A program made the position numbers and the translations under genes. From Proteromonas lacertae (Eukaryota), in the NCBI GenBank assembly GCA_002245135.1, contig NGBS01000003.1, positions 248,001 through 312,000 on the forward strand: a stretch of 64,000 nucleotides of DNA, given 5' to 3'. Positions 7,533 to 48,043 of this stretch are shown one piece after another (position 1 is the stretch's first letter; every line of letters starts with the position of its first letter). The notes under the pieces are model-generated. The model saw nothing but the letters and a program-made list of their open reading frames with translations. It searched no databases and was not told the origin of the DNA.

Positions 7533-7777
7533 TCAAGATAAATTCTATAAACAAGTATAATAATGATGTGATATATTTACAATAGAAAGTGTTAGATAAT
7601 CCATTAGAAAATAGTGATATATATGGTATAAAAGACAGTGAAAAGAGTTATCATGCTCCTCCTGACTTAAATCCTCAAAGTTTCGGATACAGACCAGGTG
7701 AAGGAGGTCATCACTTTGATGCACTTATATTATCCGTTAAAAAGCCAAAACAGAAGAAATTGCCTGCTGAACCAGAT
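7533..7777 (+). repeat. 245-bp direct repeat, copy 1 (duplicated internal fragment of the gene at 23583-24712, intron included)
   Basis: Matches 23804-24048 with 2 substitutions found; retains intron GTATAATAATGATGTGATATATTTACAATAG. Confidence 0.95.
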
Positions 7778-8767: not shown

Positions 8768-8784
8768 TAAAATGTATTTTATTT

Positions 8785-9669: not shown

Positions 9670-9689
9670 TAATACTTATTATAGTGTTA

Positions 9690-11057: not shown

Positions 11058-11101
11058 TTCTTTAATAAAATACTAAAATTTCATTCAATAAAATACTATA
11101 G

Positions 11102-11962: not shown

Positions 11963-11969
11963 AATTATA

Positions 11970-12887
11970 ATGAATTTTAATTATTATATTTTAATCCTTG
12001 TGTTTCTTATAATATTTCTTTATACAATTATTCCTCGTTCCACAAATGTGACAATCATCAAAAACGAAAAATGTGATCCTTATATTATATTTAACTCGTC
12101 ATTATATTCTACATCGGCTGGCAAAGGATTTGATGATGTATTTATTAGAAAATATTTCTTTACTTCGCTTAAGAAAGCATATGACTCTAGCGTTGATATG
12201 AAATCAATCATTATAGATGTAGGATCAAACAAAGGTGATGTAACAAGTCAATTTCATGAAATGTTTCCAAACAAAACAATTCTTTCTATTGAGCCTTTAA
12301 TTAATAACTATAATTATCAATTGAAATTGTTGAAAAATTATTCTAATATAAAGATTTATAATTATGGAATATCATACACAAATGAGATTGTAAAAATATT
12401 CACAGGTAAAGAGATAGGTTATATGTATGTGAAAGGAGAAAGTAATTCATCAGAAAAGATGGAACAGAATGTTCAGTTTATTACTATAGACTACTTCCTT
12501 AAGAATATCTGTATATAATTGTAAATATAATTAATAGATCAGTCAAATGATAATATTTATTTCTTAAAAATAGATGTAGAAGGATATGAAGATGATGTAT
12601 TGTATGGTAGTTTAAATATATTAAAAGAAAGGAAAATAAAATATATCTTTTTTGAGTACCATGATAAATGGTGCAAAACCAAACTGCTATACATTAATAA
12701 ATATCTTGAAAGATATGGATTTAATTTATATTTAATTGGCTTAAATAAATCAGTTAGAATAGTAGATGATTGTTATGAGAGTTTATCAAAAGTATTTCCT
12801 TTACACATTTTTGGATGTAATTCTTTTTATCCTAAATCAGATATTTTACATGAAGTTTATAATAATCAATTTGATAAACTATCATAA
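11970..12887 (+). CDS. FkbM-family methyltransferase with signal anchor (2 exons)
   Basis: IIDVGSNKG, SIEP; removing the 27-nt intron 12511-12537 restores LKIDVEGYE. Confidence 0.85.
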
Positions 12888-12953
12888 AACTAATAATTAC
12901 AAATTTTAATCATTTAACCCCTACTTTATTATAATTAGCATGTTCTGCTAAGG

Positions 12954-13935
12954 TTATATTATCATTTTCATAGTAAATATAATTGCATTTACTTTTTTTT
13001 GATTTATTACAATTTCTTTTCTACCTTTACACTGATGGACAATATGTAATTTTTTATCATTTCTTTCACAATACCCAATTTGTTTATAGAAGCTATCATA
13101 ATCAATTGACCAAATATAAAATGGATTTTTATTACTTGCATGATTCATTAAGCAATTGTCAATATTTTCTAATAATATATAATAATGAACAAATTTCTTC
13201 CAATAGAAGAAAGAATAATACTCTTTTACCCACAATTTATTGAAAAATGTATCTGGAATTTCATAGAAATATTTATCTTTAATCCTTTCTTTTACTATTT
13301 CTATAGGCATAAGCCAAAATGAACTAAAACCATCTTGCATTTCTATATAACATTTATCCTTGTGCTTCTTAAACACTACAAAATCCAGTATAATCTGGAG
13401 TTCTTTTAAATAATACTCCATTTTTATCTCTGTATATAACATATCTTAAAAATCCAGGTATATAGTATTTTCCTAGACTTTTAATTATTTTATAACAATT
13501 TAGATAATAATTTAAATGTTTTAACTCTAATATAACATCGCTTTCAATATATCCTATATAGTTATACCTTTTTATTGAATTTCCTAAATTTCCTATATGA
13601 TATCTGTGTTGTGCAGTAAGATATGTTCCTATACTTGCATTGCACTTAATAAATTCAACAGGAACATATGTATTTAATTTTTGACAATATAAAGGATTTA
13701 ATATTAATGAATTGTTAGGTATTTCTGTGTAATGGACAATTAATTTTATATATATCCCACCTTCACATATGTTTAAAACACTATTCTGTAGTGTATAGAA
13801 GTAGTCAAATTGGGATGTTCCATAGAGAGCTGTATATATTAATATTGATGTAATATACTGTTGGTATTTTATGTAAATATAAACAACAACAACAGATAAA
13901 AATATAAACATGAACAAGGAGAATCGTATTTTCAT
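12954..13935 (-). CDS. Putative glycosyltransferase-like type II membrane protein, split over two overlapping ORFs
   Basis: Signal anchor, YNYIGYIESD acidic motif, IPGFLRY; frames joinable by a 22-nt GT-AG intron or a 1-nt indel. Confidence 0.5.
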
Positions 13936-13968
13936 TTTAAGAAGTGTTTTAAGCTACTTTTTAATGTG

Positions 13969-15649
13969 TTATATAAATAGTTTATCCACTTTATACTCTC
14001 CATCACCAAATTCTAATATTAATTCTCCTTTATTATGTATTTTATTTCTGAAATATTCTTCATAGTTGGTAGAATATTCTATTCCTTTATTATTCACTAT
14101 CAAATTATTCATTTTCAATATTCCTCTACTTTTTACTTTTATAGTCAGTGATCCATTTACATTTATATTGTTTATATATACATTTCCTTTTATTACCAAT
14201 TTTGAATTATTCTTTACTACAATTATCCCTTTAAAGTGTCTTTTAATATTTTGTGTGGTTGAAGAAATTAGAGGATCAATATGTATTTTAGTATTATCTC
14301 CTATTTTCCATCCAAATTTTGTAAGTTTCTTTTTATTCCTGATATACATTTTTTGTTCTCCATCATCAGGAGTATAAAAATCATTATCATTTGATATTTC
14401 CTTTACAGGATTAAAACATAACCATCTCGGCATATATGTACTACTTATATTGTCAAATTCTTTAGTGAAAATTATATAATCTTGTAATACTGTTTCTAAC
14501 CTAAATGACCTTGCTTTTCTATTAGAAAGAATATATTCTGGTAGAACTTTGTCTGTATTTACAAGAGTATTTAAATAGTAATGTAAATTGAAACAAATAA
14601 TGTTAGTTACTGCAGGATAATAAGATTGATTATCACTAATGTTATTTATATCTTCACCTAGTAATCCTTGTAAACATGAATAATCTATAGCTCTTACTTT
14701 GTATTTTCTTCCATCTTCTTCACATGAACATAATATAGAAGCTTTTTCTCCTTCATATCTCTTAACAATTAAGTAATTAACATCTATGTTGTTACGAATA
14801 GAACAACCTATCAAAACTGGTATTGATTCAAAAGCAAGTGAGTTTGTATCTTGAAAAATAATAAAATACTTAACACCTTTATCTTTCCATTTTTTTAATA
14901 TTTTGTTCTATATATATATATAATATTATATATACTTTTATTAATAAGTGATGTACATCTCCATGACCATGAGGTTTATCAATTAATTTACCATCTACAT
15001 AACATAAATTACAATTTATATCAATGAAAGATGGAACATTACTTTGTTTAACAAAATAGAACTGTTCATATGATAAACCAAAATAACTATTTTCTTCTAA
15101 GAAGTGTTTAGTGATAATGTCAGTTGCTTCAGAAGTCATTATACATACAAATATCAATTTACCTGATATATTTTGATAAGACTTTATATATCTTATATAG
15201 AACTCTAAATAACTATATCCACTTATTTGATCTATTGGTAAAGATACTTTTATATCATTATTGTTTAACCTTTCGCCTAATCCACCAGCAACCAATACAA
15301 ATCCACAATAATGAATATTTGTTATACCTACTGATTCATAATTTAAAAACAGCTTATCCAAGTATTTTACTTCTACTCCTTCTGGTTTTGAAATGTTATT
15401 TATATTGTAATGATACTTTTTTTCTTCATATAGATTAATCAATTTCTTTCCTTTGATTATATAGTCTTTTAATCCATGTTGTAAAGTTTTATCATATTTT
15501 AATGCTTGAAAGCATAAATCCATTAATTCTAAGATGTTAGTAATTAATATACTATTATCATTTTTTGCCTTTTCTATTACATCATGTTGGTTAGATTTTA
15601 TTAAAATATGATAACCATAATAATACAGTATTAGTTCTGAAAATAACAT
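13969..15649 (-). CDS. USP: UDP-sugar pyrophosphorylase (USP), 2 exons
   Basis: GFVLVAGGLGERL and KPHGHGDVHHLL; after the intron at ~14908-14935, FQDTNSLAF, then RLETVLQDY and FNPVK. Confidence 0.85.
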
Positions 15650-15683
15650 TACAAAAGTGATATATAATAACAGAAATATAAAA

Positions 15684-16682
15684 CTATTTTAAATTTAGCA
15701 AATGTTTATGATAATGATTATATTTTGTTTCTATTGTGTAGGTATTCTTTTTAAATTTCTTCTCATCAAAACTTTTACATTTCTTTCTATTTTCAGCGCA
15801 TATTCCTTGTTCAATTAAATAATTAATTACTTTATTCATCATAACTGAATCTCCATGTTTATCAACATTAATTCCCTCAATCTTCTTAAAATTGACATAA
15901 ACATATGAATAAGGTAAATGAATAGTACATCTGGTTGGAAATGGATTTTCTTCTATGTTAATTAACGAATATTGGTTTTCATACTTCATTATGTGTATAT
16001 ACTCCAAAAATGTGCCGAATTGCCCAAATACATATTCTTCCATTAATTTCACTAAAGTTGAATTATGAACTTTTTCAATGTAATTCCATGTCTCTTCTAC
16101 ATGCTTAGTTTTAACGATAATAGGATAAGTAAACATAACATCTCCCCAATTTGAATTATTAGACTTAAGTATTTGTGTTGGATCCCACCTTGAGTCTCTA
16201 AACTTTAAAGTATAAAGAATAAATGGTCTTCTGTTTGTATCAAATAATATATCATATTTTGCATATGACATAAAAGGTGAATCAGAATCTATCATTGCAA
16301 TAAATTCATCTGGTATGCAATACTTATACGAAACATAAGAATTGTATTGTTGTTTCATAACTTGAGCTTTTATATCTGGTGTTGATGTTCTAATAATTGT
16401 CCAATCATTTGAGTAATTAAACGGTAATGCTCCATTGAAGTTGTCTATCCAATGTATTTTTTTACCTATCCCTTTAGGCCAAAATGTATCAATACTATTA
16501 ATTATGCTTTGAACAAATGGAAAATCCTCAACTGCACTAGGCAAAAACAAACATACACTTACATTATTTGATTTAAACTTCCAACTAAAATCTATTTTTT
16601 GATCTGATTGGATATATAACACATAATACAATGCACAAGATATGCTGCATATTAAAGTAATGAAAATAATTAAAACAATCAT
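15684..16682 (-). CDS. Putative GT-A glycosyltransferase with signal anchor
   Basis: MIVLIIFITLICSISCALYY anchor; FIAMIDSD (DxD) motif; intronless. Confidence 0.55.
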   Translation of the reverse strand: MIVLIIFITLICSISCALYYVLYIQSDQKIDFSWKFKSNNVSVCLFLPSAVEDFPFVQSIINSIDTFWPKGIGKKIHWIDNFNGALPFNYSNDWTIIRTSTPDIKAQVMKQQYNSYVSYKYCIPDEFIAMIDSDSPFMSYAKYDILFDTNRRPFILYTLKFRDSRWDPTQILKSNNSNWGDVMFTYPIIVKTKHVEETWNYIEKVHNSTLVKLMEEYVFGQFGTFLEYIHIMKYENQYSLINIEENPFPTRCTIHLPYSYVYVNFKKIEGINVDKHGDSVMMNKVINYLIEQGICAENRKKCKSFDEKKFKKNTYTIETKYNHYHKHLLNLK

Positions 16683-16704
16683 TCTATATAAACAAATATA
16701 AGAA

Positions 16705-16943
16705 ATATTGACTAAACCAATTTTCAATGCTGGACAGATGTATTGGACCAAACAATACATCTAATAACAACAGATGAAGGTATTTTAAATAACTTTGTAT
16801 ATTCTAATAAATTTAAGTATAATGTATATCTAAAACATCATGGTTATGGATATGCACTATTTCTACATTATCCTATCCCATTTACAAAAGACAATTTTAC
16901 TCCACATAATAATTACCTTTATTGTGGCAAGGCAGTGAAATGA
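16705..16943 (+). pseudogene. Possible decayed glycosyltransferase fragment
   Basis: KPIFNAGQMY in one frame and TDEGILNNFVYSNKF in another recall NxG and DQG-x2-N motifs of GT-A enzymes; no start or anchor. Confidence 0.3.
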
Positions 16944-17024
16944 GAAAGAAAAATTATAAAAAATATATAAAGTATCATAAAAGTGTAAAATCATATAATG
17001 TTAAATAAATAAATAAAGCATTTA

Positions 17025-17939
17025 TCATTTATTAATAATATAATCATTTATATCTACTTCTTTTAATAAATCCAAATTTAAACCACCCAAAAAGCATTGA
17101 AACCTCCACCAATTATTTCCCATACACATATTAAGATTGTGAACTCTTATCAAAGTCACTTTTAGAATATACAATGCTATTGTGTTGTATAGCGTTTGAT
17201 CTTTACCTACAAACTGATTCTTGTTCAAAAAATAATCATGTAATTTCCAAAATTCTTCATAATATCTATTAATTGATTTTTTATTTCCTCCAAAACTAGT
17301 TCCTTCAATCCAATCTCTAACAACTAATTCTGTTTTATTTTTTAGTTTAAATGTTTGATTATAAACTGTAAAAAAGAACATTGATTGAAATGTATATAAG
17401 ATGTTGATTGCTTTTAATGATGGAATTGAATCAAAAGGAGTAGGATCTCTAAATGTTCCTATATCAATCCATATATATAGTTTACTAGCTATATCATTAG
17501 CTGCTGTTTCTAGAAAACATATTTTGCAATTCCATATTGCATAAACATCAGGACTGTGTAGAAAACTCTCTCTGTCAATTTGATGTTGTTTTACATAATC
17601 TTCTTTGTATTTCTTAATACATGGAACATCCCATATTGACTTATATTCATATTTATATGCTTTAACGAACGAAGGAACGAAAGATGTAGAAGATTTGTTA
17701 TTATCTGTAAATATTACCAAAGATTCATTTATAAAACTGAAGAATCTATTTATCCATAACCGATATTCTTGAAGTTTGTGTTTCCCATTATTATCAACAT
17801 GAAAATATGAAGTAACAAACAGATATTGGTAAATATGTTTATTATCTTCAAAATTAAAATACAATAAACCATAATATACTCTATAAAAGATAGAAAATAA
17901 AAGAATAAATGACAGGTAATTAATACTTTTATGAATCAT
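17025..17939 (-). CDS. HtrL/YibB (WlaTC-like) family putative glycosyltransferase, paralog B
   Basis: Close paralog of 8785-9669, sharing SFVPSFVKAYKYEYKSIWDVPCIKKYK and LYIWIDIGTFRDPTPF. Confidence 0.75.
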   Translation of the reverse strand: MIHKSINYLSFILLFSIFYRVYYGLLYFNFEDNKHIYQYLFVTSYFHVDNNGKHKLQEYRLWINRFFSFINESLVIFTDNNKSSTSFVPSFVKAYKYEYKSIWDVPCIKKYKEDYVKQHQIDRESFLHSPDVYAIWNCKICFLETAANDIASKLYIWIDIGTFRDPTPFDSIPSLKAINILYTFQSMFFFTVYNQTFKLKNKTELVVRDWIEGTSFGGNKKSINRYYEEFWKLHDYFLNKNQFVGKDQTLYNTIALYILKVTLIRVHNLNMCMGNNWWRFQCFLGGLNLDLLKEVDINDYIINK

Positions 17940-18794
17940 GTCTATTTATTCTATTTTCTGTTGCTGATATTAAGCTGTGTTGTGTATAAATATTTTATTT
18001 ATTTAAAATCATATAAAGATTATGAAATCGGAGTTGTTGTGAGAGTTTCAAAACCTTCATTATCTCAGCAAAAAAGATATATGAAATGGATGAAATCACT
18101 ATCATATAAATATTCATTTTGGATTATAACAAATTATAATACATCACTTCTTCCCAATTTTTCAAATGTGATAAGAATTTCATCTGAGTTGATTATGAAA
18201 AGATATCCGCATATAAAAGAATTGAAAGATCCAGGTCATTGTAATCAGCGGTACATGGAAGATGATATTTTTTATCCTTTCATTTCTCATACAGAATCAG
18301 TAATTGAGTTAATAAGTAAATACAATTTAAAATTCAAATATATATGGGTTATTGAACAAGATTTTGGTTGTACAGGTGAGTTGTTTGATTTTTTACAGAT
18401 ATATGAACCAACAAAATGTGATTTTATAACAGCTGAAATCAATCTTAATTTTGCTTCACAATGGCCGCATGTAAAATGCTGTAGTAATAATTATGCAAAG
18501 TGGAGAAATATATACTCAAACAGTTCTGTTGGATATTCATCAAAGGAATTTATTCAAAGATGGAGTTATAAACTTGTAATGAAAATAAAAAAGAATCTAG
18601 AGAATGGAATTCATTCGATTTCAGAAGCTAGTGTTCCAGAAACTGTCATTTTTAATAATTTAACTTACAAAATCATTGATAATAAATATATAAGTGATTC
18701 TTTCATGTGGAATTCAAGAGTATCTGAAGAAAAATGGAATGAAATTATAAATAAAACTAACGATATAAAACTCTATCATGGTCTTAAGTTTTAA
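17931..18794 (+). CDS. Putative glycosyltransferase (DUF3405-like), paralog A
   Basis: Signal anchor; FKYIWVIEQDFGCTG; C-terminal LYHGLKF. Confidence 0.55.
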   Translation: MNHVYLFYFLLLILSCVVYKYFIYLKSYKDYEIGVVVRVSKPSLSQQKRYMKWMKSLSYKYSFWIITNYNTSLLPNFSNVIRISSELIMKRYPHIKELKDPGHCNQRYMEDDIFYPFISHTESVIELISKYNLKFKYIWVIEQDFGCTGELFDFLQIYEPTKCDFITAEINLNFASQWPHVKCCSNNYAKWRNIYSNSSVGYSSKEFIQRWSYKLVMKIKKNLENGIHSISEASVPETVIFNNLTYKIIDNKYISDSFMWNSRVSEEKWNEIINKTNDIKLYHGLKF

Positions 18795-18795
18795 T

Positions 18796-19883
18796 TTACA
18801 TATCTGGAAATTTCAAACATGAATTTGATTTAAAATTATCTACTAAATCTGTGTATGTCTCATAATCATATACATCTCCTTCAAATGTAATAAACTTGAA
18901 TTTGTTTTTCATATCATCATATATTTTATTCTCATAAAACATATATAACACAACTTTTGAATATGTACTTTTATGAGAAACAATCAAATAATCTGTTAAA
19001 CTTGCAAATACCAAATCTCCAATCGTTTTTATAAATGTTAAATTATTATATATTTTGGAGGTATGTCTTGGTATTTCATTAGGCATAAACAGAATAGTTT
19101 TATTATACAATTGAGAAAACTGTTTTGAAAAAATATGATTTGCAGAACTTAGAAAAATATAACAATCTTTACCATTCGTCAAGTTGTGTGAGAGAGATAA
19201 TACTTTCTTAGCAACATTTTCATTCACATCACAATTACTAGATACAACACATCCATCATGAGATCTGTATTGTATTCCTAACTTGCATTGATTTTTAAAT
19301 TGTTCAGTAAATTTTAACACCAACTTCTTTATTCTCTTCTTTACTACAACAATTTCAGTATAAAGTTTGCTGTTTGTTTGTAGAATTCTTTCAAGAATTT
19401 CACTATCTCTTCTTTTTATATAACCATTCTTAATAAACCATGATAATAATTTTTCACATTTAACTAAAGTTGGAATTAAATCTAATACATCTATTATTAC
19501 ATAAACATCTCTATTTGATAAAACAAACTTATAATAGAATTCACACATACTTTGACAATATCCTTCCCATCTAATATCAATTTTTGTATAATTTGGGCTT
19601 ATATACTTTATAGGTGAGTAGTATATACTACTTTCTATGTAATCACTAACGAATTCATAATTATATACTATCATCAATAGAAAAATATTATACAATATAA
19701 ATCTCTATTTGATAGTTGTGAAAGAATAAAACAGCCAGCTATTCCCATCAATCTATTACATAAACCACTAAATGATATTTCATTTATAAGTATATTCTTT
19801 TTTAACTTAATATTTCCACATACAATTATCAGAAAAAATATAAGAAAAATTGAACAGAAGAAGAAAATCCAATTTCTATTCAT
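18796..19883 (-). CDS. Fucosyltransferase-like protein (GT-B; GT11/GT23/GT37 clan), 2 exons
   Basis: SGLCNRLMG, LGIQYRSHD, YIFLSSAN, DLVFASLTDYLIVSHKSTYS; a 26-nt intron at ~19668-19693 joins the two ORFs. Confidence 0.7.
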
Positions 19884-19912
19884 ATTAAATTAACAATTAC
19901 TTCCATATATTT

Positions 19913-20788
19913 TTAAAATTTTAAAGCATGATATAACTTATTCTTTTTTGAAGGATTAGTTGTAATTATATTCCATTCTTCCATACCTATTCTAGTTCCA
20001 TATGAACATTTATAACCAATATCATCCTTTTCAATTACTCTAATTGATAAATCATTAAATGATGCAACTTCAGCCAATAATCCTTCATTTTGTGTATGTC
20101 TTTTTAACTTCATATTTTTATTCATGAAATATATGAATTTTCTAGACCATCTTGCAATATTTATTGGAGCAACAACTCTACTTTTTACAGGTAGAATTGA
20201 TTCTTTCCATTTTCTATATTCTTCAGTGAAACAATCCAACCACATCCACCCACTATCATTTCTATGAATTACGTATGGCAATACAATTAAATCATCATAT
20301 TTTCTATCATATTTTTGAAAGAAATTGAAGAAATTACCAGAATATGCAATGTCTTGTTCTATAATCCACAAATACTTATATTTTAAATTGTTTGTATTTA
20401 CCCAAATCATTACATGTTCAAATGGCATTGTCCACATATAAAAATTGTCAGGTTTATTATTACAATATCCTGACATATTCTTCATTGCTGGATATGTCTT
20501 CATCATCTTTTTAGAATCCACACATGTTATAAAGACACTCTTTATTTTTAAGTCACATCTATCAGTTAATATTGCGACAAAATAATCTGAAGGACAGTTA
20601 TCTCCCCATTCTTTATATCTTTCTTTTTGAAACTGAGTAGGATTAGAAGCATGAATCAAAATCACAGATTTATATACTTTTTCAGTTTGAATTAGATTAT
20701 TGGTTTTTATTTGATTTAATGAAATATATATAATAATTATAGAAAACATAAAAAATAAAATTATTACATATAGAGAATATATATTCAT
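19913..20788 (-). CDS. Putative glycosyltransferase (DUF3405-like), paralog B
   Basis: YKYLWIIEQDIAYSG and C-terminal LYHALKF; colinear with 17931-18794. Confidence 0.55.
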   Translation of the reverse strand: MNIYSLYVIILFFMFSIIIIYISLNQIKTNNLIQTEKVYKSVILIHASNPTQFQKERYKEWGDNCPSDYFVAILTDRCDLKIKSVFITCVDSKKMMKTYPAMKNMSGYCNNKPDNFYMWTMPFEHVMIWVNTNNLKYKYLWIIEQDIAYSGNFFNFFQKYDRKYDDLIVLPYVIHRNDSGWMWLDCFTEEYRKWKESILPVKSRVVAPINIARWSRKFIYFMNKNMKLKRHTQNEGLLAEVASFNDLSIRVIEKDDIGYKCSYGTRIGMEEWNIITTNPSKKNKLYHALKF

Positions 20789-21225
20789 AATCCTTCATAT
20801 TAAACATTATAAATATACCGGATACTATCATAATTATCTATTCTCCTAATAATTGAAATAAAATCTGAGTTTTCGCAGCAATTAATATAAATTAGTATCA
20901 TCACTTCCTACATTTCTTCAAATTTTATATTTGTTACGCAATTAATCATATTTCTCATTAAATAAACTTAGTAAGACACAAAAAATAAAACACTTCATTA
21001 TCTTCATATTCCACATTATTACAACATATATGTGTGTAATATTTTCTACCAATATTTCTGGAATTAAAATTCATTTCTATCTGTCCTTTTAAACAGATCT
21101 TCTTAATAATACAACTTTTTCTATCACAAATCGGTTAAACATAACAATGATACATTCAAAATTACATATAAAAGCAAAGTGATATTGAATAACTCATTAA
21201 TAACATAAATAACAAAAATTAAAAA

Positions 21226-22368
21226 TTAAATTAGGCTTGACTTGATTCTTTTTGATTTTTGATTTATTCTTATTGACATTTCATCCATTTCATTTTTTAT
21301 GAATGTAGGACAAAGCTTATTTAGTTCAGGATTGAGATGTCTGGTATGTCTATTATACGCATATTTTGATTCTATAGTAGTTTGTGTTATATCTGAATGA
21401 CATGGAATATTGTGTATTTCCAAACATGATACTTTTAATGGATTAGCTATAACATACTTTCTAGCATGTCCATTTTGAGTTTGACAAGATATATTAATTT
21501 TAAACATATCAATATCAGTTAATTTCATATCTTTGTCATGTTTATACTCAACAACAGTGTTAGAAGGTGGGAACACTCTTCCATGCAAAAAATATACATC
21601 AAATAAAGGAAGTTTTGAGAATAATTCATCATAATTCTTTCCAACAACTGGCCAAAGAATCTCATCAAAATCCAACTCCATTATATAATTAGATACTTCT
21701 TGATATTTATGAAAACAATGATTTAATTTCCACACTTCACCATAATATCTTCTTTTCCATATTTCTTCCATCGTTTCATTATACCTATTCGTTTCTAATA
21801 TTCCATCATTTACATAATACTCTAATACTTTCATTACTTCTGGAGTGGAACTTACATAATATGTTACTATTTTTGACACTCCAAAAGCCTTCATTGATTC
21901 AATATGTTGAATTAAATAAGTCACTCTATTAAAATTTACTAAAACCGGCGAACAAACAACATATTTATATTTTTCTTTAACAGGATTTGGAATATCAATT
22001 TTAACATCATCTAAAACAACATAACTAGGTTTTATTTTAGATGATAGGTTGATTCTTACATTAAAGTAAAAAGAATCAATATTGTTAGATTTTATAAACT
22101 CAGCAAAACACTTTATTTGTTTATTTTCATATATATAATAACAACTATTAAAAGTTATGTTCCGCAGAGGAGAATATCCATGTAGTAATATATGCGAAGC
22201 TTCTTTTTTATAAAACACTCCATTTATATATGAATTTTGATTTATTTTGTAAAATGGAATATCAATGAAGTTAGTTATGATATTTCCTCTTACATATTCT
22301 TCATTCATAAAATATATAATTAATATAATAAGTATGATATATATAAGAAGATATCTCTTCATATACAT
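21226..22368 (-). CDS. GT92 (DUF23) family glycosyltransferase
   Basis: KYVVCSPVL, FGVSKIVTY, LNHCFHKY, ELDFDEILWP; signal anchor; intronless. Confidence 0.8.
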   Translation of the reverse strand: MYMKRYLLIYIILIILIIYFMNEEYVRGNIITNFIDIPFYKINQNSYINGVFYKKEASHILLHGYSPLRNITFNSCYYIYENKQIKCFAEFIKSNNIDSFYFNVRINLSSKIKPSYVVLDDVKIDIPNPVKEKYKYVVCSPVLVNFNRVTYLIQHIESMKAFGVSKIVTYYVSSTPEVMKVLEYYVNDGILETNRYNETMEEIWKRRYYGEVWKLNHCFHKYQEVSNYIMELDFDEILWPVVGKNYDELFSKLPLFDVYFLHGRVFPPSNTVVEYKHDKDMKLTDIDMFKINISCQTQNGHARKYVIANPLKVSCLEIHNIPCHSDITQTTIESKYAYNRHTRHLNPELNKLCPTFIKNEMDEMSIRINQKSKRIKSSLI

Positions 22369-23582: not shown

Positions 23583-24712
23583 ATGTCTCTTAAAATCTTA
23601 GAGAAAGAAGAAAATGCTTGGAGAAGAATAGAACAGAAATCTTAGTATTGTAATACTTATAATGTGGTTAGTTTTTTTAGGAAAAGATATTACATTCCCA
23701 ATATTGAGTTAGATCATGAACCATATTGTCCAGAAAGAACATTATTGAGTAAAATTGAAATGAATCGATATTATCGAAATCCATTACTACATGAACCAAC
23801 AGCTCAAGATAAATTCTATAAACAAGTATAATAATGATGTGATATATTTACAATAGAAAGTGTTAGATAATCCATTAGAAAATAGTGATATATATGGTAT
23901 AAAAGACAGTGAAAAGAGTTATCATGCTCCTCCTGACTTAAATCCTCAAAGTTTCGGATACAGACCAGGTGAAGGAGGTCATCACTTTGATGCACTTACA
24001 TTATCCGTTAAAAAGCCAAAACAGAAGAAATTACCTGCTGAACCAGATGGATTATTATCAGCTGCAAGATTAAACACATTACTTCACTCCAAAGTAAAAA
24101 CAAATCAATATACAGGTGATCCTCATGAATTAGAATTATTATTACGTGCTCCAAGTGCTAAAGCAATGTCTGATATAACTTGTAAACCACATAAACCAGT
24201 ATAAGAAATATTGTTATTATTATTAGACATATGAAGAATCTTTAGAAGATCCAATAGTTCAAAAAGAATTTGAAGATACAGTAATACCTCCAAAGATAAT
24301 CAAAAATGGAACATTAACTCCAATTGAAAAATCCAAGAAGAAAAACAAGAAAGAGTTGTATTTAAAAGAATTAGAATCTGGTTTTGATAATACAATGTAT
24401 ATCAATAGTTATATATATATATATAGATGTCATACACATCAAATTCGTCAAAATAGTGCTCCAATATTAACTAGACAAAAGCAAATCAATAACAAAGAGA
24501 AATATGCGAAATTGGCGGCTAATAAATTAACCACAACTTTATGCACAGAGAAGATAATGACAGATGATATATTAAAGACAATGTTTCCTGATACTATTGA
24601 TAGATATAAGAGAGAAGATGAGGGCAATCATAGAGAATATTTGTGTAGAAGTGTTGTACATACTACTACTCCAAGACCAATGAGAAAGAAACTGTTTGGA
24701 TCAAAAGAGTAA
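23583..24712 (+). CDS. Hypothetical protein, multi-exon
   Basis: ATG 23583; open frame after removing short introns (23645-23671, 23826-23856 and later ones). Confidence 0.7.
23804..24048 (+). repeat. 245-bp direct repeat, copy 2 (donor copy inside the intact gene)
   Basis: Matches 7533-7777. Confidence 0.95.
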
Positions 24713-31605: not shown

Positions 31606-33045
31606 ATGAGTGTTCGTTATATGTGTGATCGAGCCATTGTTCCACAATCGGAATATGAAAGAATTAGGAAAAGTGTCAGCTTTGTACCAGATACAACAAA
31701 CCCTGAAAAAGAAAGGTTGAGAGAATTATCAAAAACTAGAAGTGCTCAATGGACAAATACATTAATTGGAAATAGACAATTAAAATTAGTATATTAATAT
31801 GCATTTATTTTTTAGAAACAAAAAGCAGAACGTGAAAAGGCATTAGAGCTTGAAAGACAAGAAATAGATAGAGCAGAAGATAAAGCTAGAGAGGAATATA
31901 GATTAGAAACAATAGATAGAGCTAACCGTCTACTAGAAGAAGAAACTGACAGAATGAAGATGTTGAAAAGCAAAACTTTGTTAGTAGATACATTAATAGA
32001 AAGAGAACATCAAGTAGTATGGAAAGAACGAAAAGCTGAAATGGAAAAGAAAAGAGAAGCTGTTCATTATCAACAAATGTTGGATAGAATGAGAGCTGAG
32101 AAAGAACGAGAAGATAGAGAAAGAGCAGAAAAAATAGAAAAATGTCGTCAAACCGCCAAAATCAATGCAGAACAAATGAAAGCTTGGGAAGACAAATACA
32201 CAACAGAAATATTAAATGATAGAGCAGAAGGTAAAAAAATAGCTGACAAAGCCAAAGCAGAATTAGAAGAAGAACGTCAAGAAAGAATTAATCGAAGATT
32301 AAGGTATATCGCAGATTCAAAGGCTATGCAACAAGCCAATGCTGAAGTAGAAGAATTTAAAAGAACACAAGAAGAGCATTTCAATAATTTAGATAGGAAG
32401 AACGCTGAATGGGCAAAAAAGAAAGATGAGCAAGAAGAAAGAAGAAAAAGACAATGGGAGAAGAGACAACAAGATCGTTTAAGAACCACTAATTTCCTAA
32501 TTAGCAGAGCAACTGAAGCATTGAAATACCAAACTGATAATAGTGAAAGAATATTACAAAAACAAATAAAAGAACAAAATGCTAAAGAAGATGAAGCTGA
32601 AAGATTGAAAGAACAGAAGGCTCAGGAGGAGTGGAATGCTATAGTCAAGAGCAGAACTTATCAATTAGAAGAAAAAGCAAGATTAGAACGAGAACAAAAG
32701 CAAAGAGATCAGGAATTCGCTATTGCATGGAAGAAACAGAATGAACAGTTCCAGAAGGAAGAATATGCTGAAAGAATGAGGATATTGAAGAGAAATAAAG
32801 AAAATGCGGAAGAAATACATAAACAAGCAATAGAAAGAGAAGAAAGGAAGAGAAAAGTGAGAGAAGAAGAGATTTTGAATGAAGAAGCTGATTTAAAGAG
32901 AGTTGATGATGAAGATGCTAGAGTATATAGAAGAGCTATGGCTTTGTTGGAAAAATATGAGAAAGCTGGTAAGAATACACTGCCTTTGAGAAGAGCCATG
33001 CTTCCAATTGATGAATTACACAATGCTATGCAATTCAATCAATAA
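31606..33045 (+). CDS. Trichohyalin-plectin-homology coiled-coil protein, CFAP210/CCDC173-like
   Basis: SEYERIRKSV...LRELSKTRSAQWTNTLIGNRQLKL N-terminus, TLIEREHQV, long E/K/R coiled coil; 1 intron. Confidence 0.6.
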
Positions 33046-37805: not shown

Positions 37806-39319
37806 AAACACCAAATAAACAATATCAATAAATATTATGTTAAACAAATTATCATATAATATTTAAAACACTTTATTTATATACTCTCAAATGATTTCAA
37901 ATGACTTTCATATTCTTTCTTCTTATTAAAACATTTTAAACAGTATTTACAGATTCGAGTAGTTTTCTTTATATTTAAATCAACATTGTATAAATTCATT
38001 ATTGGTTTTAAGTATTCGAGATAATAATAACGAATTATTCGTTTTTCACTTCGATGAAACAACAAATTGATTATTTCTATTTGTGGTTTATGATTCGTAT
38101 ATTGAGTTGTTCTTAATATTTCAATCTTCTTTTCATCATACATATAGAATATGTTTATTCCTATATTGTTATATTTCTCGAAAGTTCTTAAACCAATTTC
38201 ATCACATGGATCTACTGGATATTTTAATTCATATTTTATCTTATCTTTATGTTGTAATAGATTTTCTATTCGATAGTTTTCTAAATAGTTTCGCTCCTTT
38301 GAATAATGGAATAGAATTGAATATAAGAAACTCTTGTTATCATTACATGGAATTTTATCAGTGTAAACAAGTACATCTTTTGAAGATATTTGGTCGAATT
38401 GTATACTTACTTTCATAAAAACCATTATTATTATTGTGTAATCCTTGTTCATGTCGGATATCGGAATATATTGGAATAACCACTTGAAACAATTGGAATT
38501 GACTCGATTCTACCTTTGAAATTACAGTTATCAAATATCATCTTTGCATTACATTCAGATGATGAATTTAGAAGAAATTCATTACAAAAACTATTGGATA
38601 TTGCAAAATTCTTATTAGAAGCACTTGATTCATAATCACACTCAGTTTTTATCATTAATGGAGATTTGCTTGTTGAATCTGATATAATATCATTACCTGA
38701 ATATGGAACATCTGGAACATATTCATTATAATCACATATATCTGGAGAATAAGAATCTACTTTTTCACAGATGAATTCTTTCCAACTATTGTATGTTGAT
38801 TTTTCATCTTCATAACACATTTTTTTGTTTGGTACACCATATACTTCGCGATCTACTTCTGGATTTTCGACATTATATAAATCTAGATAATATGATCTTC
38901 TTTTGTTGATATTCAGTCTATCCAGTTCATTGTAAATCGAATTATCATCGTTATCTAAGGTTCATACACTCCTCATTACTCATTATTGTTTTGCTTTTAA
39001 ACCCAAAAGAAAAAATCAAATGAAAATCAAATATATATCAAACCATGTTAATTCTTTTTGAAAACAGCCAATCAAATTCCATCAGAAACTCTATTTCATT
39101 GGTTTATATATTGTAATGCCTCACTTGTGAGAAGGCTAGATTATCGTTTTGGTATAACCGCCTTGATGTATATATGTATGTATAGGTATTTGTGGATGTT
39201 CAGTAATCACATGTGAGGCTTAAACTATATCTAGAAGATTAAAGAATTATTCGTTTTATTCTTCTATCATCCTTCACTCATTATTATCCCATTCATCCTT
39301 CATTCAATCCTTATTCCTT
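37806..39319 (-). repeat. Left arm of large inverted repeat
   Basis: Reverse complement of 39590-41100. Confidence 0.97.
37877..38983 (-). pseudogene. Frameshifted copy of the 39926-41029 ORF
   Basis: Three +1 insertions relative to the right copy (~38360, ~38457, ~38961) break the frame. Confidence 0.75.
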
Positions 39320-39589
39320 AATAATATCATCATCCTCATTTATTACAGTTTTTTCATCCTTCAAAAAGTCACTCAGTCAAAAGTAGGATGAAAATTGATG
39401 ATAGAGGATAATTTCCTCAAATAGTAGAAAAAGGATTATAAAAAGAGGATTTTTAGTTAAGTCTTCTTTTTATAATCCTATTCTCTATATGATCCATCTG
39501 TGAGGAATATTATCCCTTTTTTTCAATCCTCCTAATAATCCTCTATTATCACTTTTTATGAGTTTGTAGGTGTGTAAAATCCTTCTGTG

Positions 39590-41100
39590 AAGGAATGAGG
39601 ATTGAATGAAGGATGAATGGGATAATAATGAGTGAAGGATGATAGAAGAATAAAACGAATAATTCTTTAATCTTCTAGATATAGTTTAAGCCTCACATGT
39701 GATTACTGAACATCCACAAATACCTATACATACATATATACATCAAGGCGGTTATACCAAAACGATAATCTAGCCTTCTCACAAGTGAGGCATTACAATA
39801 TATAAACCAATGAAATAGAGTTTCTGATGGAATTTGATTGGCTGTTTTCAAAAAGAATTAACATGGTTTGATATATATTTGATTTTCATTTGATTTTTTC
39901 TTTTGGGTTTAAAAGCAAAACAATAATGAGTAATGAGGAGTGTATGACCTTAGATAACGATGATAATTCGATTTACGATGAACTGGATAGACTGAATATC
40001 AACAAAAGAAGATCATATTATCTAGATTTATATAATGTCGAAAATCCAGAAGTAGATCGCGAAGTATATGGTATACCAAACAAAAGAATGTGTTATGAAG
40101 ATGAAAAATCAACATACAATAGTTGGAAAGAATTCATCTGTGAAAAAGTAGATTCTTATTCTCCAGATATATGTGATTATAATGAATATGTTCCAGATAT
40201 TCCATATTCAGGTAATGATATTATATCAGATTCAACAAGCAAATCTCCATTAATGATAAAAACTGAGTGTGATTATGAATCCAGTGCTTCTAATAAGAAT
40301 TTTGCAATATCCAATAGTTTTTGTAATGAATTTCTTCTAAATTCATCATCTGAATGTAATGCAAAGATGATATTTGATAACTGTAATTTCAAAGGTAGAA
40401 TCGAGTCAATTCCAATTGTTTCAAGTGGTTATTCCAATATATTCCGATATCGACATGAACAAGGATTACACAATAATAATAATGGTTTTTATGAAAGTAA
40501 GTATACAATTCGACCAAATATCTTCAAAAGATGTACTTGTTTACACGATAAAATTCCATGTAATGATAACAAGAGTTTCTTATATTCAATTCTATTCCAT
40601 TATTCAAAGGAGCGAAACTATTTAGAAAACTATCGAATAGAAAATCTATTACAACATAAAGATAAGATAAAATATGAATTAAAATATCCAGTAGATCCAT
40701 GTGATGAAATTGGTTTAAGAACTTTCGAGAAATATAACAATATAGGAATAAACATATTCTATATGTATGATGAAAAGAAGATTGAAATATTAAGAACAAC
40801 TCAATATACGAATCATAAACCACAAATAGAAATAATCAATTTGTTGTTTCATCGAAGTGAAAAACGAATAATTCGTTATTATTATCTCGAATACTTAAAA
40901 CCAATAATGAATTTATACAATGTTGATTTAAATATAAAGAAAACTACTCGAATCTGTAAATACTGTTTAAAATGTTTTAATAAGAAGAAAGAGTATGAAA
41001 GTCATTTGAAATCATTTGAGAGTATATAAATAAAGTGTTTTAAATATTATATGATAATTTGTTTAACATAATATTTATTGATATTGTTTATTTGGTGTTT
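39590..41100 (+). repeat. Right arm of large inverted repeat
   Basis: Reverse complement of 37806-39319. Confidence 0.97.
39926..41029 (+). CDS. Intronless protein resembling the N-terminal (pre-exonuclease) region of Polinton/Maverick-type pPolB, ending in a CxxC..H zinc finger
   Basis: NDNKSFLYSIL, LKYPV...FEKYNNIGINIF, INLLF, YYYLEYL, ICKYCLKCF...ESH; no polymerase catalytic motifs. Confidence 0.65.
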   Translation: MSNEECMTLDNDDNSIYDELDRLNINKRRSYYLDLYNVENPEVDREVYGIPNKRMCYEDEKSTYNSWKEFICEKVDSYSPDICDYNEYVPDIPYSGNDIISDSTSKSPLMIKTECDYESSASNKNFAISNSFCNEFLLNSSSECNAKMIFDNCNFKGRIESIPIVSSGYSNIFRYRHEQGLHNNNNGFYESKYTIRPNIFKRCTCLHDKIPCNDNKSFLYSILFHYSKERNYLENYRIENLLQHKDKIKYELKYPVDPCDEIGLRTFEKYNNIGINIFYMYDEKKIEILRTTQYTNHKPQIEIINLLFHRSEKRIIRYYYLEYLKPIMNLYNVDLNIKKTTRICKYCLKCFNKKKEYESHLKSFESI

Positions 41101-41248: not shown

Positions 41249-41751
41249 TTATATATTTTCTCCTTTTTTCTTCATAAATCCAACATTTCTTAATTTATAT
41301 AGACGATAAGCATCAAGCATTGTTTCAATACTCTTAATATGCTCTGGGAAATATCTTTTGTCATTGCGAGATATATTCTTAAATGGTCGAAATCTATTGA
41401 ATTATAGAGACATTATACTTCTTATTCCATGCATGAGCAGCTCGATGATCTTTCGGTAAGTCTATTACATGTCTATGCTTCTTAGCCAACTTCAATTTAT
41501 GATGAACTGTTCTTTTTGAGCAAATGAGTAACAGATCACTGAAAAACACTCTTGGTGGATCATTATCATGCTTATATCTATAAACAATAACACATAACAA
41601 TACATAGTTAGCTTCATTTCTATTATTTCATCCCAAATATTCTGTTTCTTTTTAGATATTCCTAATGGAGGAGGTAAAGCATGAAAGAAAGCAGGTAAAC
41701 TTGTATAAGGGATAAAACACAAACCATTTGGATCAAAACCTATAACAAATA

Positions 41752-41789
<38 letters not shown>

Positions 41790-44700
41790 TCCAAACTCTA
41801 ATAAACTCTTCAAAATAATGTTGTGGTAATTCAGGCCTTCTAGTAAGACTATCAAAACTATCTAAAACAACACCAATGAACAAATTAATCAATATGAAAT
41901 TAATGATTATCATAAATGAATAGAAATAAGGATAAGCAAAGTTATTACCACATCCAGTAAATGGAATACAATTGGTTGTATTAAAATCATGAATGCAGTA
42001 ACTACTATTGTAAGTTGGATTTACTCTACAGTTATCTTGATCTAAACAATCATACATTATTTGATTCCAATTCTCACCTGTCAAACACCGAATTAATGTT
42101 AAAAAAGCTGAGAAAAAATCTCTAAAATTCACTCTATCATTCAATATTACACCATCTTTTACTTTAGCAAACAATTGAACTCCAATTATGGAATAAATTA
42201 AGAACATTAATGCTAATATAGCTGATATATTTCCTATTGCAGGTAATGTCAAGAGTAAAGTATTGAACAACATTCTGAGTGATGTAGCAAAATGTAATAA
42301 TCGTAAGATTCTACCTATTCTAAAAGCTCTAACAACTAATAATATTCCATAATGTTGATGATAAATATCCATTAAGATATAAGCCAACATCAGCACCAAT
42401 TGTGACAATAAAATCAAATACATTCCAACTCTCTCTAAAATACTGTTTTAATCCCAAGCCAAACATTTTTATCAACATTTCTATTGTAAATATCCATGCT
42501 AATGTTTCACTTATATAATCCAATGTTCTAGAATAAGCTAATGGAGCTGAGTAATAATAAGCACCCATTATGATTGTATTAATCAATATTAATATTGTTA
42601 TAAATATATCAAAACCTTCTTTTCTTACTAAGTCAAAACACATTTTTCTCCATTTATCTAAACACAACTATAAAACATCAATAAATATACTTTGAGGATG
42701 AATTAAAGGTCTATGTATTTTCAATGATAATAAAGTCTCTTTTATTGCAACCCACTCTCTTTGTTCAGAAGTGAGAAACATGTTGGCTTTTGTATTATTC
42801 TTACGAAATTCTGTAAACTTGTCAATTACAACTCCAACGAACAAATTGATCAAGAAGAAAGATCCAAGAAATATGAATATAACAAAATAGATACACCATG
42901 CTAAACTATTATCTTTAATAGGTTGCATTTCAATTCTATAAGATTAAAATAACAACTAAATATATACCCATTATTGTCTGTAGCAATATGCATTATTTTC
43001 AACCATCCTTCTCTTGAAACAAGTTGTAATAAAGTTGAAACACTTTGAAATATATTATTAAAATTCTGTGGGCAATGATAACCAGATTTCCATTGACATT
43101 TCATCCATAAACAAACATTTTTTGATGTTTCTCCACTATATTCTCCACTAAACCAACTCTTTTGTAATGCATTGAGTTTATCATATGCTATTGGATAAGT
43201 AATCAAATTAAATTGATCTGTAGTAATTGTATTTGGACAAATACAACCATAATTCAAACCTTTGAAGTAATACAGAGCAAATAAACCAAATATAATGAAA
43301 AATAAAAATGAAATTAAAGCGACATTTATCAAACCAGGTATTGACGATACTAATACATGAACTGCTCTTTTCAATGCTATTATAAAAAGTGATATAAAAT
43401 GAATAAAAAATACTTTTGAATTTGCTAATCATTGATAATGGTCTTAATGCACTCAAAGCATGTAATGATTTCATCGCTGTTAAATGTTCACCAATATCAA
43501 TAGGAGATAACACTAAAAAGATAATTATTACTACAAATAACTCTAATATATTCCAACCATTGTGTAGAAATGCACCATGAGTGAATAACACTCCCATTCT
43601 AATCAAATTATATAAGAAATATATATATCATACGATATTGTTTGTAAAAGTATCTCGACAGTAAAGAATATATTCACTATTAATTCACCATAATGAATAA
43701 CTTCATAGATTGTACTATGCGGAATGTGTAGTGGATTATCAATAGCTAATAGAGTTGAAGCAACTACAATCATAAACACGTTGAAATATTCCCAATATTT
43801 ATTACAAATTAACTTTGTTATAGCGATTCTGATTCTGTTGCTTGGACTGAATATAAACCATGAATAACCATATAATAATGAATATTCTTCTTCTGATTCT
43901 TCAGAATCTATACTGGCAAATGTCATTGGCTCTAAATGACTCTATTATGATATAAATATAACAACATGTATAATACAGCAATAGTGTATGATTCAAATCT
44001 TTTATGCCTTCTTTTAGTAGGTGTATAATTGTTATTTGAATAATCAGAATGATGAAAATGAGGTGGAGTGATAATAGTAAAGAATTCTTCATCATTTGTA
44101 TCAACCTTCCTATGTGATGTAGGTTCAATAACTGGTTCTAAATCTTCTGGAATTGGTTCTTCATCTCTCAACTCAAAGTCAACATCAGTTGTATTAATTG
44201 TTGGTGGATGTGCTTTTAATGGTAAGATAGTTGGATTAAATGTAGTTAATTCAACTTCTCTTGGACTTGTTGGCATTGCATTTTTGGTTTTCTTCCTTCC
44301 CAAACTTTGATGAATTTCTGAATAAAACGCAGATACTGTTCTTGATCTTGTTGTGTAAGAATGTGTATCAGATTGACTAGAAACAGATCCACTATCAACT
44401 TCTGGTGTTGATTCTGAATAATTATCTTCCAATAGTTCAATTTTCCTTAAATACTTTTTGATTTTATTCCATATATGTCTACATATAAATTAAGAAATAA
44501 ATATACAATAAATAAACATGAGTTCTAGTTGGTGGTGGAAAATGAATCAATTTCTTATGTCTAAAATTTCCAATCAAAATTGCTAAGAACAAATTCAATA
44601 TAATCATATTACCAAACAATATCAAATTCAATCCATAAACAGTACCCCAAAAGTCCTCTTGTCCTGATTTGATCATATCAAAATAATATGAAATCCATCA

Positions 44701-47000
44701 ATGTCTAAGTATTGAAAAACACATAACAATGAGTGAATGAATGTATCATAATTATTTCTTGGTACTACTGTAAAGACATTATATCTTGGATCTCCAATTT
44801 CTACAGCTTCTCTTGTGATTGGATCAAAATGAAATCGATCAGCAAACATAAACATACCAATTAAAGATTCAATAAATAAATATAATAACAAAATAAGACA
44901 AAAATTGATAAAATCAAAAGTGGAATAAGCAATAATTGACATAAGTTCATGTAAAGAATCCCACGATTTTATTACTTTAAATAAACGCAATATTCTCAAC
45001 GCTCTGAATATAAGAAATGAAGATCCTTGATATAATAGTAGTGAATTATCATGTATAAGAATAATCATGAATTCTGCAATACTAAACAACACAATAATCA
45101 CATCTAATATATCATATCCATCTCTAAAGTATAAAACTGGTCCAACAGCAATAATCCTTAATACCAACTCAAGTATAAATAATATTGAAAGGATAATGTG
45201 GATATATTCGCACGTTTTAGCAACTGAATTACCTATATTAATATTGTAAATATAATAAACAAAGTTATATATATATATATATATATATATATACTTGGAA
45301 GTGGATATTTATCAATCATCAATACAATAACATTAACAATGACTAAAAAGAGTATAAATAAATCAAATAATGGATGAATAACGATTTTAAATGCAAATTG
45401 TGATATTCTGTTACTTTGCATATAATGCTCTTCCAGTTTTTCTTCTCTTGTTTTATATGTAGAAACCATTATTTCATGTCTTGGTTTTTCTAACTTTTTA
45501 AATGTTCTATCTTCTTTCTATAAAACAATTAAGAATAATATATATATATATATATATACCAAAACTTCACTATGTTTCAAATATATAATAGCCAATATAA
45601 AATTCGACAAGAAATAATTACCTAACAAAACAATCAAAATAAACCATATAGGTATAAACCAAACACTAAAACTATCCATATACATATACATAATATCACT
45701 CCATCCATCCATAGTTAAAGTATTCACAATAACAATAAAAGCATCCCATAAACTATCAAAAGAAGCGTAATTATAACCAAATATTAAGTGGAAATCTGGA
45801 TCTCTCATATTCATTTCATTAATAAACCGGGGATTACCATATTCATCATAATTTGAACCACATACTTCAGGATAAGGACAAATTGCTTCAGTTGCATTAT
45901 GAATTGAACATAATCGCTTTATTGTAGTATCTTCAGGCCAAATACAATTTCTTGGTGTTTTCCAAGGTGATGTATTTTTGTTCCATTTACTACTCTCTAA
46001 AGGAATTATCGAGCCAAGCTCTTTATCATTAAATTCGTCATCATCACCATGACAGTATGGAAATTTTTCTCTATTATATAATATATCATGAAATATATGA
46101 TCTTTCGGTCTATTTAAATCATAATATTCATATTTATATTCCAAATAATGTGTTAATATTGTTGAATTATCTATTTGAATTGGATATTGTGTTAATCTAC
46201 AATGATTATGACTAAATCCCATCATTAATTGTATTCCAACAATTCCAAAAAGTACAAATACACAAAATAACAATATCACCACATTTAATAACCCTGGTAA
46301 TGAATATACTAATGTTGATAATAACATTTTCATTCTTGGAACTAGTTTAAATTAACATAGATATTATAACAATTATACTATGATTGACAGTTCTTAATGG
46401 TCTTAATAAACGTAATAAACGGAAAAATGAGATAGATGAACCTGAATCTAAAGTAAAGAATCCTGCAATAGTAACAACAAAGTCTATCAAATTCCAAAAA
46501 TCTCGAAGATAAGTTCCTCTATTATTGATATATATCATCATTTTATACTTATCAAATAAAAAACCCATTCCTATGATTCTTAATATCATTTCAATCGTAA
46601 ATATAACTTGGAACGGTATTTCTGAATAATGTATTACCTTGTTAGCTAATGATGTTGTAGCTATACCTGTGGATGGATCAAATCCTTCAGATGCTGGATG
46701 CTAGCATAAAAATAAATATATATTGCACATACATGAGTTATTGGATCAATACATTTATAATCAGTAAAGGCCAGCATAATGGAATTTGTGAAAATGAACA
46801 CAGATATGACAATATCAAACCATTTATTCATTGTAACTTTTAAAATAAATTTTCTAAATTTGTTGTCAACATCAAATAGAAATAGAGACCTATTACCAAA
46901 TCTATAGTGTTTTTCGTGGAAAAAAAAGTTGGGGTACATCGGGTCATCTTCAGAAATGGCTCTATTATTCATATAATACTCATATGATACAACATTTAAA
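41249..47000 (-). CDS. Four-domain voltage-gated Ca2+ channel alpha subunit, many introns
   Basis: S4 segments (RLLRLLRPLR, RALRILRLFK, RAFRIGRILRLL), pore loops TMDGW/DIDGF/SREGW/TGENW, INLFVGVVIDKF; start approximate. Confidence 0.92.
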
Positions 47001-47111
47001 ACATTCACTTTCAAAAAAAATATTCGTTTCAGGATCACTTCAAATCAAACCTTTTAGACAAAAAAATGAAAATAATTAATTACTAAATGCAAAACTAATT
47101 ATCAACAATTC

Positions 47112-48043
47112 TCACAGCTCTTGTACTGAATATTCTTCAGGTATATATCCTTGAATTTCATATATATTTGTGTAATGTTGTTTAATTGGCAAAATCCAAT
47201 CAAAAGAAAACCTTCCATCTCCTCCAAACACTTCTCTCAAGCTTTCTCTGGTTGATTTTATATACGAATAATCTTTTTTCAAAGCATCAATGCCAGAAAC
47301 TGAGGTGGTAATTGAATCAAATTGATCAAATAACATACAGAAGGTAAATAATCCAAAAAATATAGAAAGAAAGATCATTCCTATAATATTTAAGATCATT
47401 GTTGGGTCTGAATGACATCTAGCACATCTTGCTATCCTTATAAGCCTATATAACATTATAATAATAAATGAAAATATAAAAATAAAAAAATACGTTAAAA
47501 ATATATTATTTGTTGCTATTACTGTTAAATAGAATAGAAATAAAATGAAATATTTTTGATTCTTTAAACCTATGCAGTTATTTACCCATGGACAATGATG
47601 ATCCATTTTAACTATACATCTTTCACATATACTGCAATGATGAGCTCTATTTGGTTTATATGCTAAAGGACACTTTTTACATTGACGAATAAGATCGTCT
47701 TGATTATAATAATAAGGTTGTGCTGTTTGTGGAACACTCCCAGGATCTGTAAATGCAGCTAATAATAAAAGAATATATTATATCCGTTTATACCTCTGAA
47801 ATATGATATAATAGAAAAAGTATATAGAATACCACAGTATAGAGTTACAAAGTAATATGTTTCATCTCTGAATGCATAAGGTATCACATATGACTATCAT
47901 TGAATAAATTCAAAAACATATACTTGCAACACAAACCATGCATATAATTGAGCTCCTGTCGAAAATGGTACAAAAAAGAATCCAATCGGTTCTAAACTAC
48001 ACCAATACTTTGAATCAAACGACGTTCCTATTAAATGTCCCAT
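47112..48043 (-). CDS. DHHC palmitoyltransferase
   Basis: [30 protein letters not shown]. Confidence 0.95.

Follow-up and report, generated by a model that had tools for sequence, protein, structure and literature searches.

The gene at positions 39926..41029 (+ strand) of the 64-kb stretch of DNA analysed here (the window) encodes a protein of 367 amino acids that originates from the vOTU and zinc-finger segment of a Polinton/Maverick/adintovirus-type polymerase (pPolB), has lost the terminal protein (TP), the polymerase and the catalytic Cys of its source, and belongs to a conserved free-standing family. We put at roughly 55% the probability that it is now a domesticated host gene whose product serves as a non-cutting binding adaptor. 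Domestication itself, judged from one locus together with conservation, appears likely, and the non-catalytic adaptor role is read from the domain anatomy, i.e. an acidic disordered arm, an OTU-fold domain without catalytic Cys and a zinc finger. Such a protein would work like a pseudo-OTU protein; it is neither a terminal protein nor an active vOTU, nor is it a Polinton.

Architecture of the gene

The open reading frame is single and intact and begins with ATG; an alternative TTG start is possible upstream, but relatives of the protein start at the Met of this ATG. Two CCAAT-box-like words ahead of it (39807..39841, +) may have a promoter role. All of the motifs cited in a preliminary description of this DNA are genuine and occur in the order given there: DNKSFLYSIL (aa 214-223), YPV (aa 254-256), FEKYNNIGINIF (aa 267-278), INLL (between FEKYNNIGINIF and RYYY), RYYY (aa 317-320) and CKYCLKCF..H (aa 344-360). 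The N-terminal region (aa 1-153; 39926..40384, +), predicted to be disordered and fast-evolving, is acidic as had been remarked, with 20% D+E and 9% K+R over the first 150 residues, and this arm is an addition unrelated to pPolB. There follows a short ordered helical add-on (aa 154-187; 40385..40486, +), which occupies the place where a TP domain would be and is not TP-like, then the vOTU-derived domain (aa 188-330; 40487..40915, +) and a zinc-finger remnant (C344, C347 and H360; 40955..41005, +). At this finger the frame stops, again in agreement with the preliminary description, and neither exonuclease nor palm is present.

Origin from a Polinton-type polymerase

The layout of pPolB is described as TP-vOTU-EXO-PALM (PMC11071308; PMC8502044), in which the vOTU cysteine protease sits after the TP domain and probably cuts the TP off (PMC11071308); an OTU domain in such polymerases was also noted by Starrett et al. 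(PMC8502044). The proposed likeness of our protein to the part of pPolB that precedes the exonuclease is confirmed by profile-profile and reciprocal profile matches. The profile comparison that had been suggested as a check aligned residues 183-364 with the vOTU and zinc-finger part of pPolB over 171 columns (hhalign probability 99.1%, E 1.2e-18), a resemblance that exceeds chance. A profile of the family described below, searched against 5.8 billion sequences, found a full-length pPolB of 1265 aa (P0055, E 1.9e-6) and a partial polymerase of 740 aa; these two were the only classic pPolB-like proteins it gave and no fused family member was among the matches, which is weak evidence of absence, and a single-sequence search likewise gave no longer proteins with the family domain.

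P0055 was used to fetch nine viral (polinton) loci, eight of which carry a full-length polymerase; the ninth, a partial polymerase (L011) without the N-terminal region, was excluded from the pPolB set. The family profile matches the N-terminal region of all eight full-length polymerases (31-85 bits in seven, 15 in one), which are not a wholly independent set because they were reached through P0055, and the reciprocal pPolB N-terminal profile matches 10/10 family representatives at 39-58 bits. A 1257-state pPolB profile matched the window in states 271-412 only. Among six of the P0055-fetched polymerases run against Pfam, DNA_pol_B_2 was passed by one and Endonuclease_7 matched by four. Single-sequence searches with the 367-aa protein were uninformative by comparison, Pfam and PHROGs giving only finger matches that scored under the cut-off and PDB sequence searches giving nothing useful. 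A motif scan for further pPolBs yielded six loci, which were dropped, as 0/6 matched the family profile. All eight viral-contig polymerases (L007-L010, L012-L015) retain both catalytic vOTU residues, Cys and His, as well as a C2HC finger ahead of the exonuclease, and three of them have a weak N-terminal Rho_N match.

Fold, and the question of a terminal protein

The predicted model of aa 151-367 (mean pLDDT 88) has an OTU fold. In a search against viral folds the top four matches were adintovirus, MELD and bidna-like PolB entries (E 1e-5 to 1e-3). Comparison with 48,161 PDB representatives gave 32 chains with Z of at least 2 (best Z 5.8, rmsd 3.5, 111 residues aligned; a second run was similar), which we take to be OTU-type, either by title or by family. 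These Z values are middling, and it is the consistency of the list that carries the weight for the predicted fold; Foldseek against the PDB gave no match reaching E 0.001.

A terminal-protein-like role, one of the possibilities raised in the preliminary description, fails on three counts: aa 22-153 are disordered, no sheet precedes the OTU domain and the pPolB match begins after the TP. A PRD1-like TP (the D1 domain) is described as a four-stranded sheet with two helices and a Ser/Tyr linking loop (PMC11071308). No sheet of this type was found ahead of the OTU domain in the full-length model, in which aa 22-153 have pLDDT < 50 and no sheet occurs before aa 273. In 10/10 family representatives, moreover, significant matches to the pPolB profile begin at states 123-189, past the linking loop, taken as the Gly-Ser loop at state ~114 and placed from the description in PMC11071308 rather than from a model.

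Active site and zinc finger

S217 (40574..40576, +) aligns with the catalytic Cys and R317 (40874..40876, +) with the catalytic His, both of which are present in 10/10 pPolBs. The earlier observation that a CF position here reads SF extends to the whole family, in which all 53 sequences have Ser in place of Cys; the accompanying His-to-Arg change is correct for this protein but not family-wide, since the residues at the His site are R in 22 sequences, H in 16, K in 10, V in three and M in two. Three residues ahead of the Cys, 10/10 pPolBs have Asp, whose position varies in the family, and the spacing between the Cys and His positions is 90-107 residues, against 91-125 in pPolBs. With Ser for Cys throughout and a variable His site, the suspected loss of protease-like catalytic residues is borne out, and the best reading of these alignments is that the protein is a catalytically dead OTU-zinc-finger protein.

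Against a purely binding role, the invariance of Ser down to 24% identity and the presence of both Ser and His in 2/10 lineages (two clusters) could reflect residual chemistry. The protein might then be a Ser-based or water-mediated hydrolase, e.g. a ubiquitin esterase, an activity that a preprint reports in the absence of a catalytic Cys, weakly also for the pseudo-DUB OTULINL (10.64898/2026.10.20.760496). We give this a low probability: whilst Ser is found in 53/53 and His in 16/53 sequences, the His is missing in 8/10 lineages, including this one, the Asp of the Cys loop varies, and Drosophila Otu and CG3251, OTU proteins with the same Cys-to-Ser change, are reported not to cleave ubiquitin chains (PMC4654579). 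Ser217 also stands at the start of a predicted helix, so that a structural role may explain its conservation.

In the finger, C344, C347 and H360 are each invariant (53/53). A later Cys supplies the fourth ligand in pPolB; our protein lacks it, and within the family it occurs in 16/53 sequences, all from the P0024, P0025 and P0026 clusters.

A conserved family of stand-alone relatives

The 53 family sequences are this protein and 52 of the 64 members of nine clusters, the 52 relatives having lengths of 205-368 aa and about 24-64% identity (three close clusters at 57-64%, six distant ones at 24-33%). All come from Logan only, on contigs of which the longest are 1-5 kb, and within each cluster they resemble sets of near-identical alleles. 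All 52 frames are open and end 3-16 residues past the finger His, which rules out a one-off fragment. In a tree of ten family and ten pPolB rows (one of the latter, P0058, trimmed ~30 residues too early) the family forms one side of a branch with support 100/99, and may thus have a single origin, although the tree is not truly rooted and samples few pPolBs. A fish zinc-finger protein (P0028) was dropped as a candidate member, having matched in the finger only. No family loci were found in the viral contigs, metagenome contigs, prokaryote genomes and plasmids searched, and two more viral scans returned the query contigs only.

Compared with the three closest clusters, the core (aa 188-330) is 73-81% identical and the arm (aa 61-150) 34-37%, and 5/15 variable sites in cluster 1 fall after aa 151. 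Selection for a function is favoured because 52/52 frames are open with a fixed end and the core is conserved above the arm. These observations also bear on the possibility that the gene is a decayed Polinton fragment without function, for which one might cite the second copy of the gene, frameshifted as assembled (see below), and ESM Atlas clusters of 204-280 aa, mostly eukaryotic and with similar features (0.93-0.95), which may be such fragments. Decay is, however, highly improbable given a layout that stays fixed in 52/52 open relatives over about 24-64% identity, a folded core that is the most conserved part, and the addition of an arm foreign to pPolB. Four positions (E190, R/K196, P258 and K339) are invariant in the family and not in pPolB, which suggests that new constraints have arisen.

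A probable domesticated binding adaptor

The alternative of a domesticated fragment, which the preliminary description had also offered, is accordingly supported as the leading reading by an intact and conserved frame, a dead site and host-gene neighbours. Under the domesticated-adaptor reading, an old Polinton insertion would have left behind the vOTU-finger segment, now expressed from a host promoter. Since there was no longer a TP to release, the Cys could have become Ser whilst the His and the Cys-loop Asp drifted, and the new invariant residues E190, R/K196, P258 and K339 would mark a new binding surface. A protein partner, perhaps carrying ubiquitin, might then bind to the OTU surface, with the basic finger region contacting nucleic acid or protein in addition and the acidic arm bringing in other factors; the most likely site of this would be the nucleus.

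Domesticated viral pieces are in other cases used against their donors, and the dead vOTU-finger could similarly be a host defence decoy. It would bind either the TP-vOTU junction of an invading Polinton polymerase before this is cut or the partners of that polymerase, and so block its replication. The fold and the post-TP linker residues of pPolB are indeed kept whilst the catalytic Cys is gone, and MELD/polinton-like viruses are described from gut protists (PMC8502044). We nevertheless regard a decoy as rather improbable: the core is the slowest-evolving part (5/15 variable sites of cluster 1, as above), unlike what an arms race would produce, the new invariant residues differ from those of pPolB, and this genome is not known to contain a polinton.

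The closest known system is the vOTU (D2) of Polinton/Maverick/adintovirus pPolB, with which the family shares the domain from post-TP linker to finger, the spacing of the Cys and His positions and the OTU fold. It differs in standing alone, without TP, exonuclease or palm, in having Ser for Cys and mostly no His, in the usual loss of the fourth finger ligand and in its new acidic arm; the gene studied here, furthermore, lies among host genes. The vOTU of adenovirus and bidnavirus polymerases is likewise described as having lost its catalytic residues once TP release was unneeded, with reuse for protein interactions proposed (PMC11071308); in contrast to the present case, a separate gene, it stays fused to an active polymerase in a virus genome. 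Drosophila Otu and CG3251 (PMC4654579) combine the same Cys-to-Ser change with an OTU fold kept for a non-canonical role. Cellular pseudo-OTUs descend from cellular OTU genes, unlike this family, which descends from a mobile-element polymerase, carries the polymerase finger and has mostly lost the His too. Human FAM105A/OTULINL is such a cellular pseudo-OTU, with an OTU fold, no catalytic Cys and a non-canonical role. Exapted Polinton relics of vertebrates are similarly described as Polinton-derived sequence under host selection, but as no longer intact (PMC9004415), whereas here there is an intact protein family.

No stand-alone family of dead polinton vOTUs is described in the texts searched (including PMC9004415, PMC12721341 and PMC13215967), which covered few subscription journals and no supplements, nor did that literature yield an intact protein-coding gene derived from a Polinton polymerase. 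Should synteny confirm domestication, the family would represent such a gene and would also give cellular pseudo-OTU proteins a further origin, and the adaptor, if real, would be an undescribed way of recycling a virus-like transposon. That the pPolB vOTU cuts off the TP is so far a prediction; a relative that is small, free-standing and, by prediction, well folded lends itself to structural and binding studies, and the family shows which vOTU surfaces persist once catalysis is gone.

Palindrome, central hairpin and motif array

The gene is duplicated head to head in a 3.3-kb palindrome (37806-41100), the second copy being absent from the preliminary description. The right arm (39590..41100) comprises the upstream region, the gene and about 70 nt downstream, and the left arm (37806..39319), about 99% identical, holds the second copy (37877..38983, -), which as assembled is frameshifted with a stop after 10 codons. 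The arms differ by seven substitutions, six of them transitions, and three single-base insertions, the first of which makes the stop; four amino-acid changes result in the left copy, all within the variable arm of the protein. Relatives agree with the right-hand frame at all three insertion places, and the presence of three insertions and no deletion in the left arm could reflect uncorrected long-read errors. The palindrome itself is probably a real duplication, favoured by unique genes on both flanks and by the transition-biased differences.

An imperfect hairpin (39426..39485) lies at the exact centre (z 4.8, 0/500 shuffles), and the remainder of the 270-nt spacer has no significant symmetry (z 1.6). 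An old palindrome with a diverged centre was also considered, and is weakened by the restriction of significant symmetry to the central 60 nt. Fold-back at short inverted repeats is described as able to prime inverted duplications (PMC10622511), and the palindrome likely arose recently, by local inverted duplication starting from the central hairpin, and would then have no part in protein function. Around the centre, 20 ATCC(T) motifs are arrayed as four blocks of alternating orientation (39269..39640), 16 of the motifs being independent of the duplication; ATCCT occurs 13 times in 340 nt and at most four times in any other 340-nt window, for a motif chosen after it had been seen.

Against the adaptor, a gene lying within a palindrome that has a motif array also fits a mobile unit. 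The 3.3-kb palindrome would then itself be a small mobile or satellite element, the hairpin and array its origin or binding sites and the protein its binding factor, and both arms carry the gene, the hairpin is central, the ATCCT density is high and TAA can be read at the ends. We consider this unlikely. The ATCC(T) motif was picked post hoc; the TAA direct repeat is at chance level, a repeat of at least 3 nt occurring in 18% of random flank pairs; arms and centre have no second copy in the 64 kb; no transposase, integrase or polymerase was found in the window; and the relatives look like near-identical allele sets in each cluster. Polinton/Maverick target-site duplications are 6 bp long. No terminal inverted repeats with a target-site duplication were found, the only candidates being the 3-nt TAA and inverted arms that hold the gene itself.

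More tentatively still than the domesticated adaptor, we may imagine a one-time capture of a Polinton protease-finger by a protist lineage, the active site being killed and the gene retained as a cellular family, to give a pseudo-deubiquitinase of viral-polymerase origin that binds its own upstream ATCC(T) array or acts as an anti-Polinton decoy; this we regard as possible but doubtful, and in its boldest form the protein would operate the palindrome as a hairpin element with a single gene.

Genomic neighbourhood

Two housekeeping genes flank the locus, each with its 3' end towards it: a poly(A) polymerase gene, whose stop is near 37760, and an ion-channel gene, whose stop is near 41250. A six-frame scan of the window (1199 segments) with the full pPolB profile matched only the two copies of this gene. 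The suggested search for full-length pPolB, capsid and integrase genes found none within the 64 kb; tblastn with 190 ORFs/proteins of the nine polinton loci gave no pPolB core, integrase, capsid, ATPase or other gene of those loci, and Pfam, run on 34 of the 66 ORFs of the window, no Polinton/Maverick element genes. Neither an Rfam match nor a tRNA was found.

The window is eukaryotic and AT-rich (GC 21-33% per 2 kb), uses the standard code and has short introns (32 and 35 nt in an enolase gene, read by eye). It contains a CFAP210-like trichohyalin-plectin-homology gene (31954-33045, +), which makes cilia or flagella probable in the host; human Blastocystis, in contrast, is described as having 39-55% GC and as having lost nearly all cilia genes (PMC12129017). 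The neighbouring channel gene (about 41250-47600, -), identified by eye from ORF translations, encodes a four-domain voltage-gated cation channel in multiple exons, and long (AT)n runs are found at the 5' ends of several of its introns. A 245-nt direct repeat (7533-7777 and 23804-24048, 99% identity) resembles a recently copied piece of coding exon set between two genes. A cluster of long single ORFs (7949-22368) matches glycosyltransferases (GT61, GT92) and FkbM methyltransferase and includes an inverted paralog pair (8869-9656 and 17041-17828, 80% identical). Finally, a strawberry-notch-type gene (1398-5901, -) has a PHD finger between its AAA_34 and SBNO domains, a layout found in plants and some protists.
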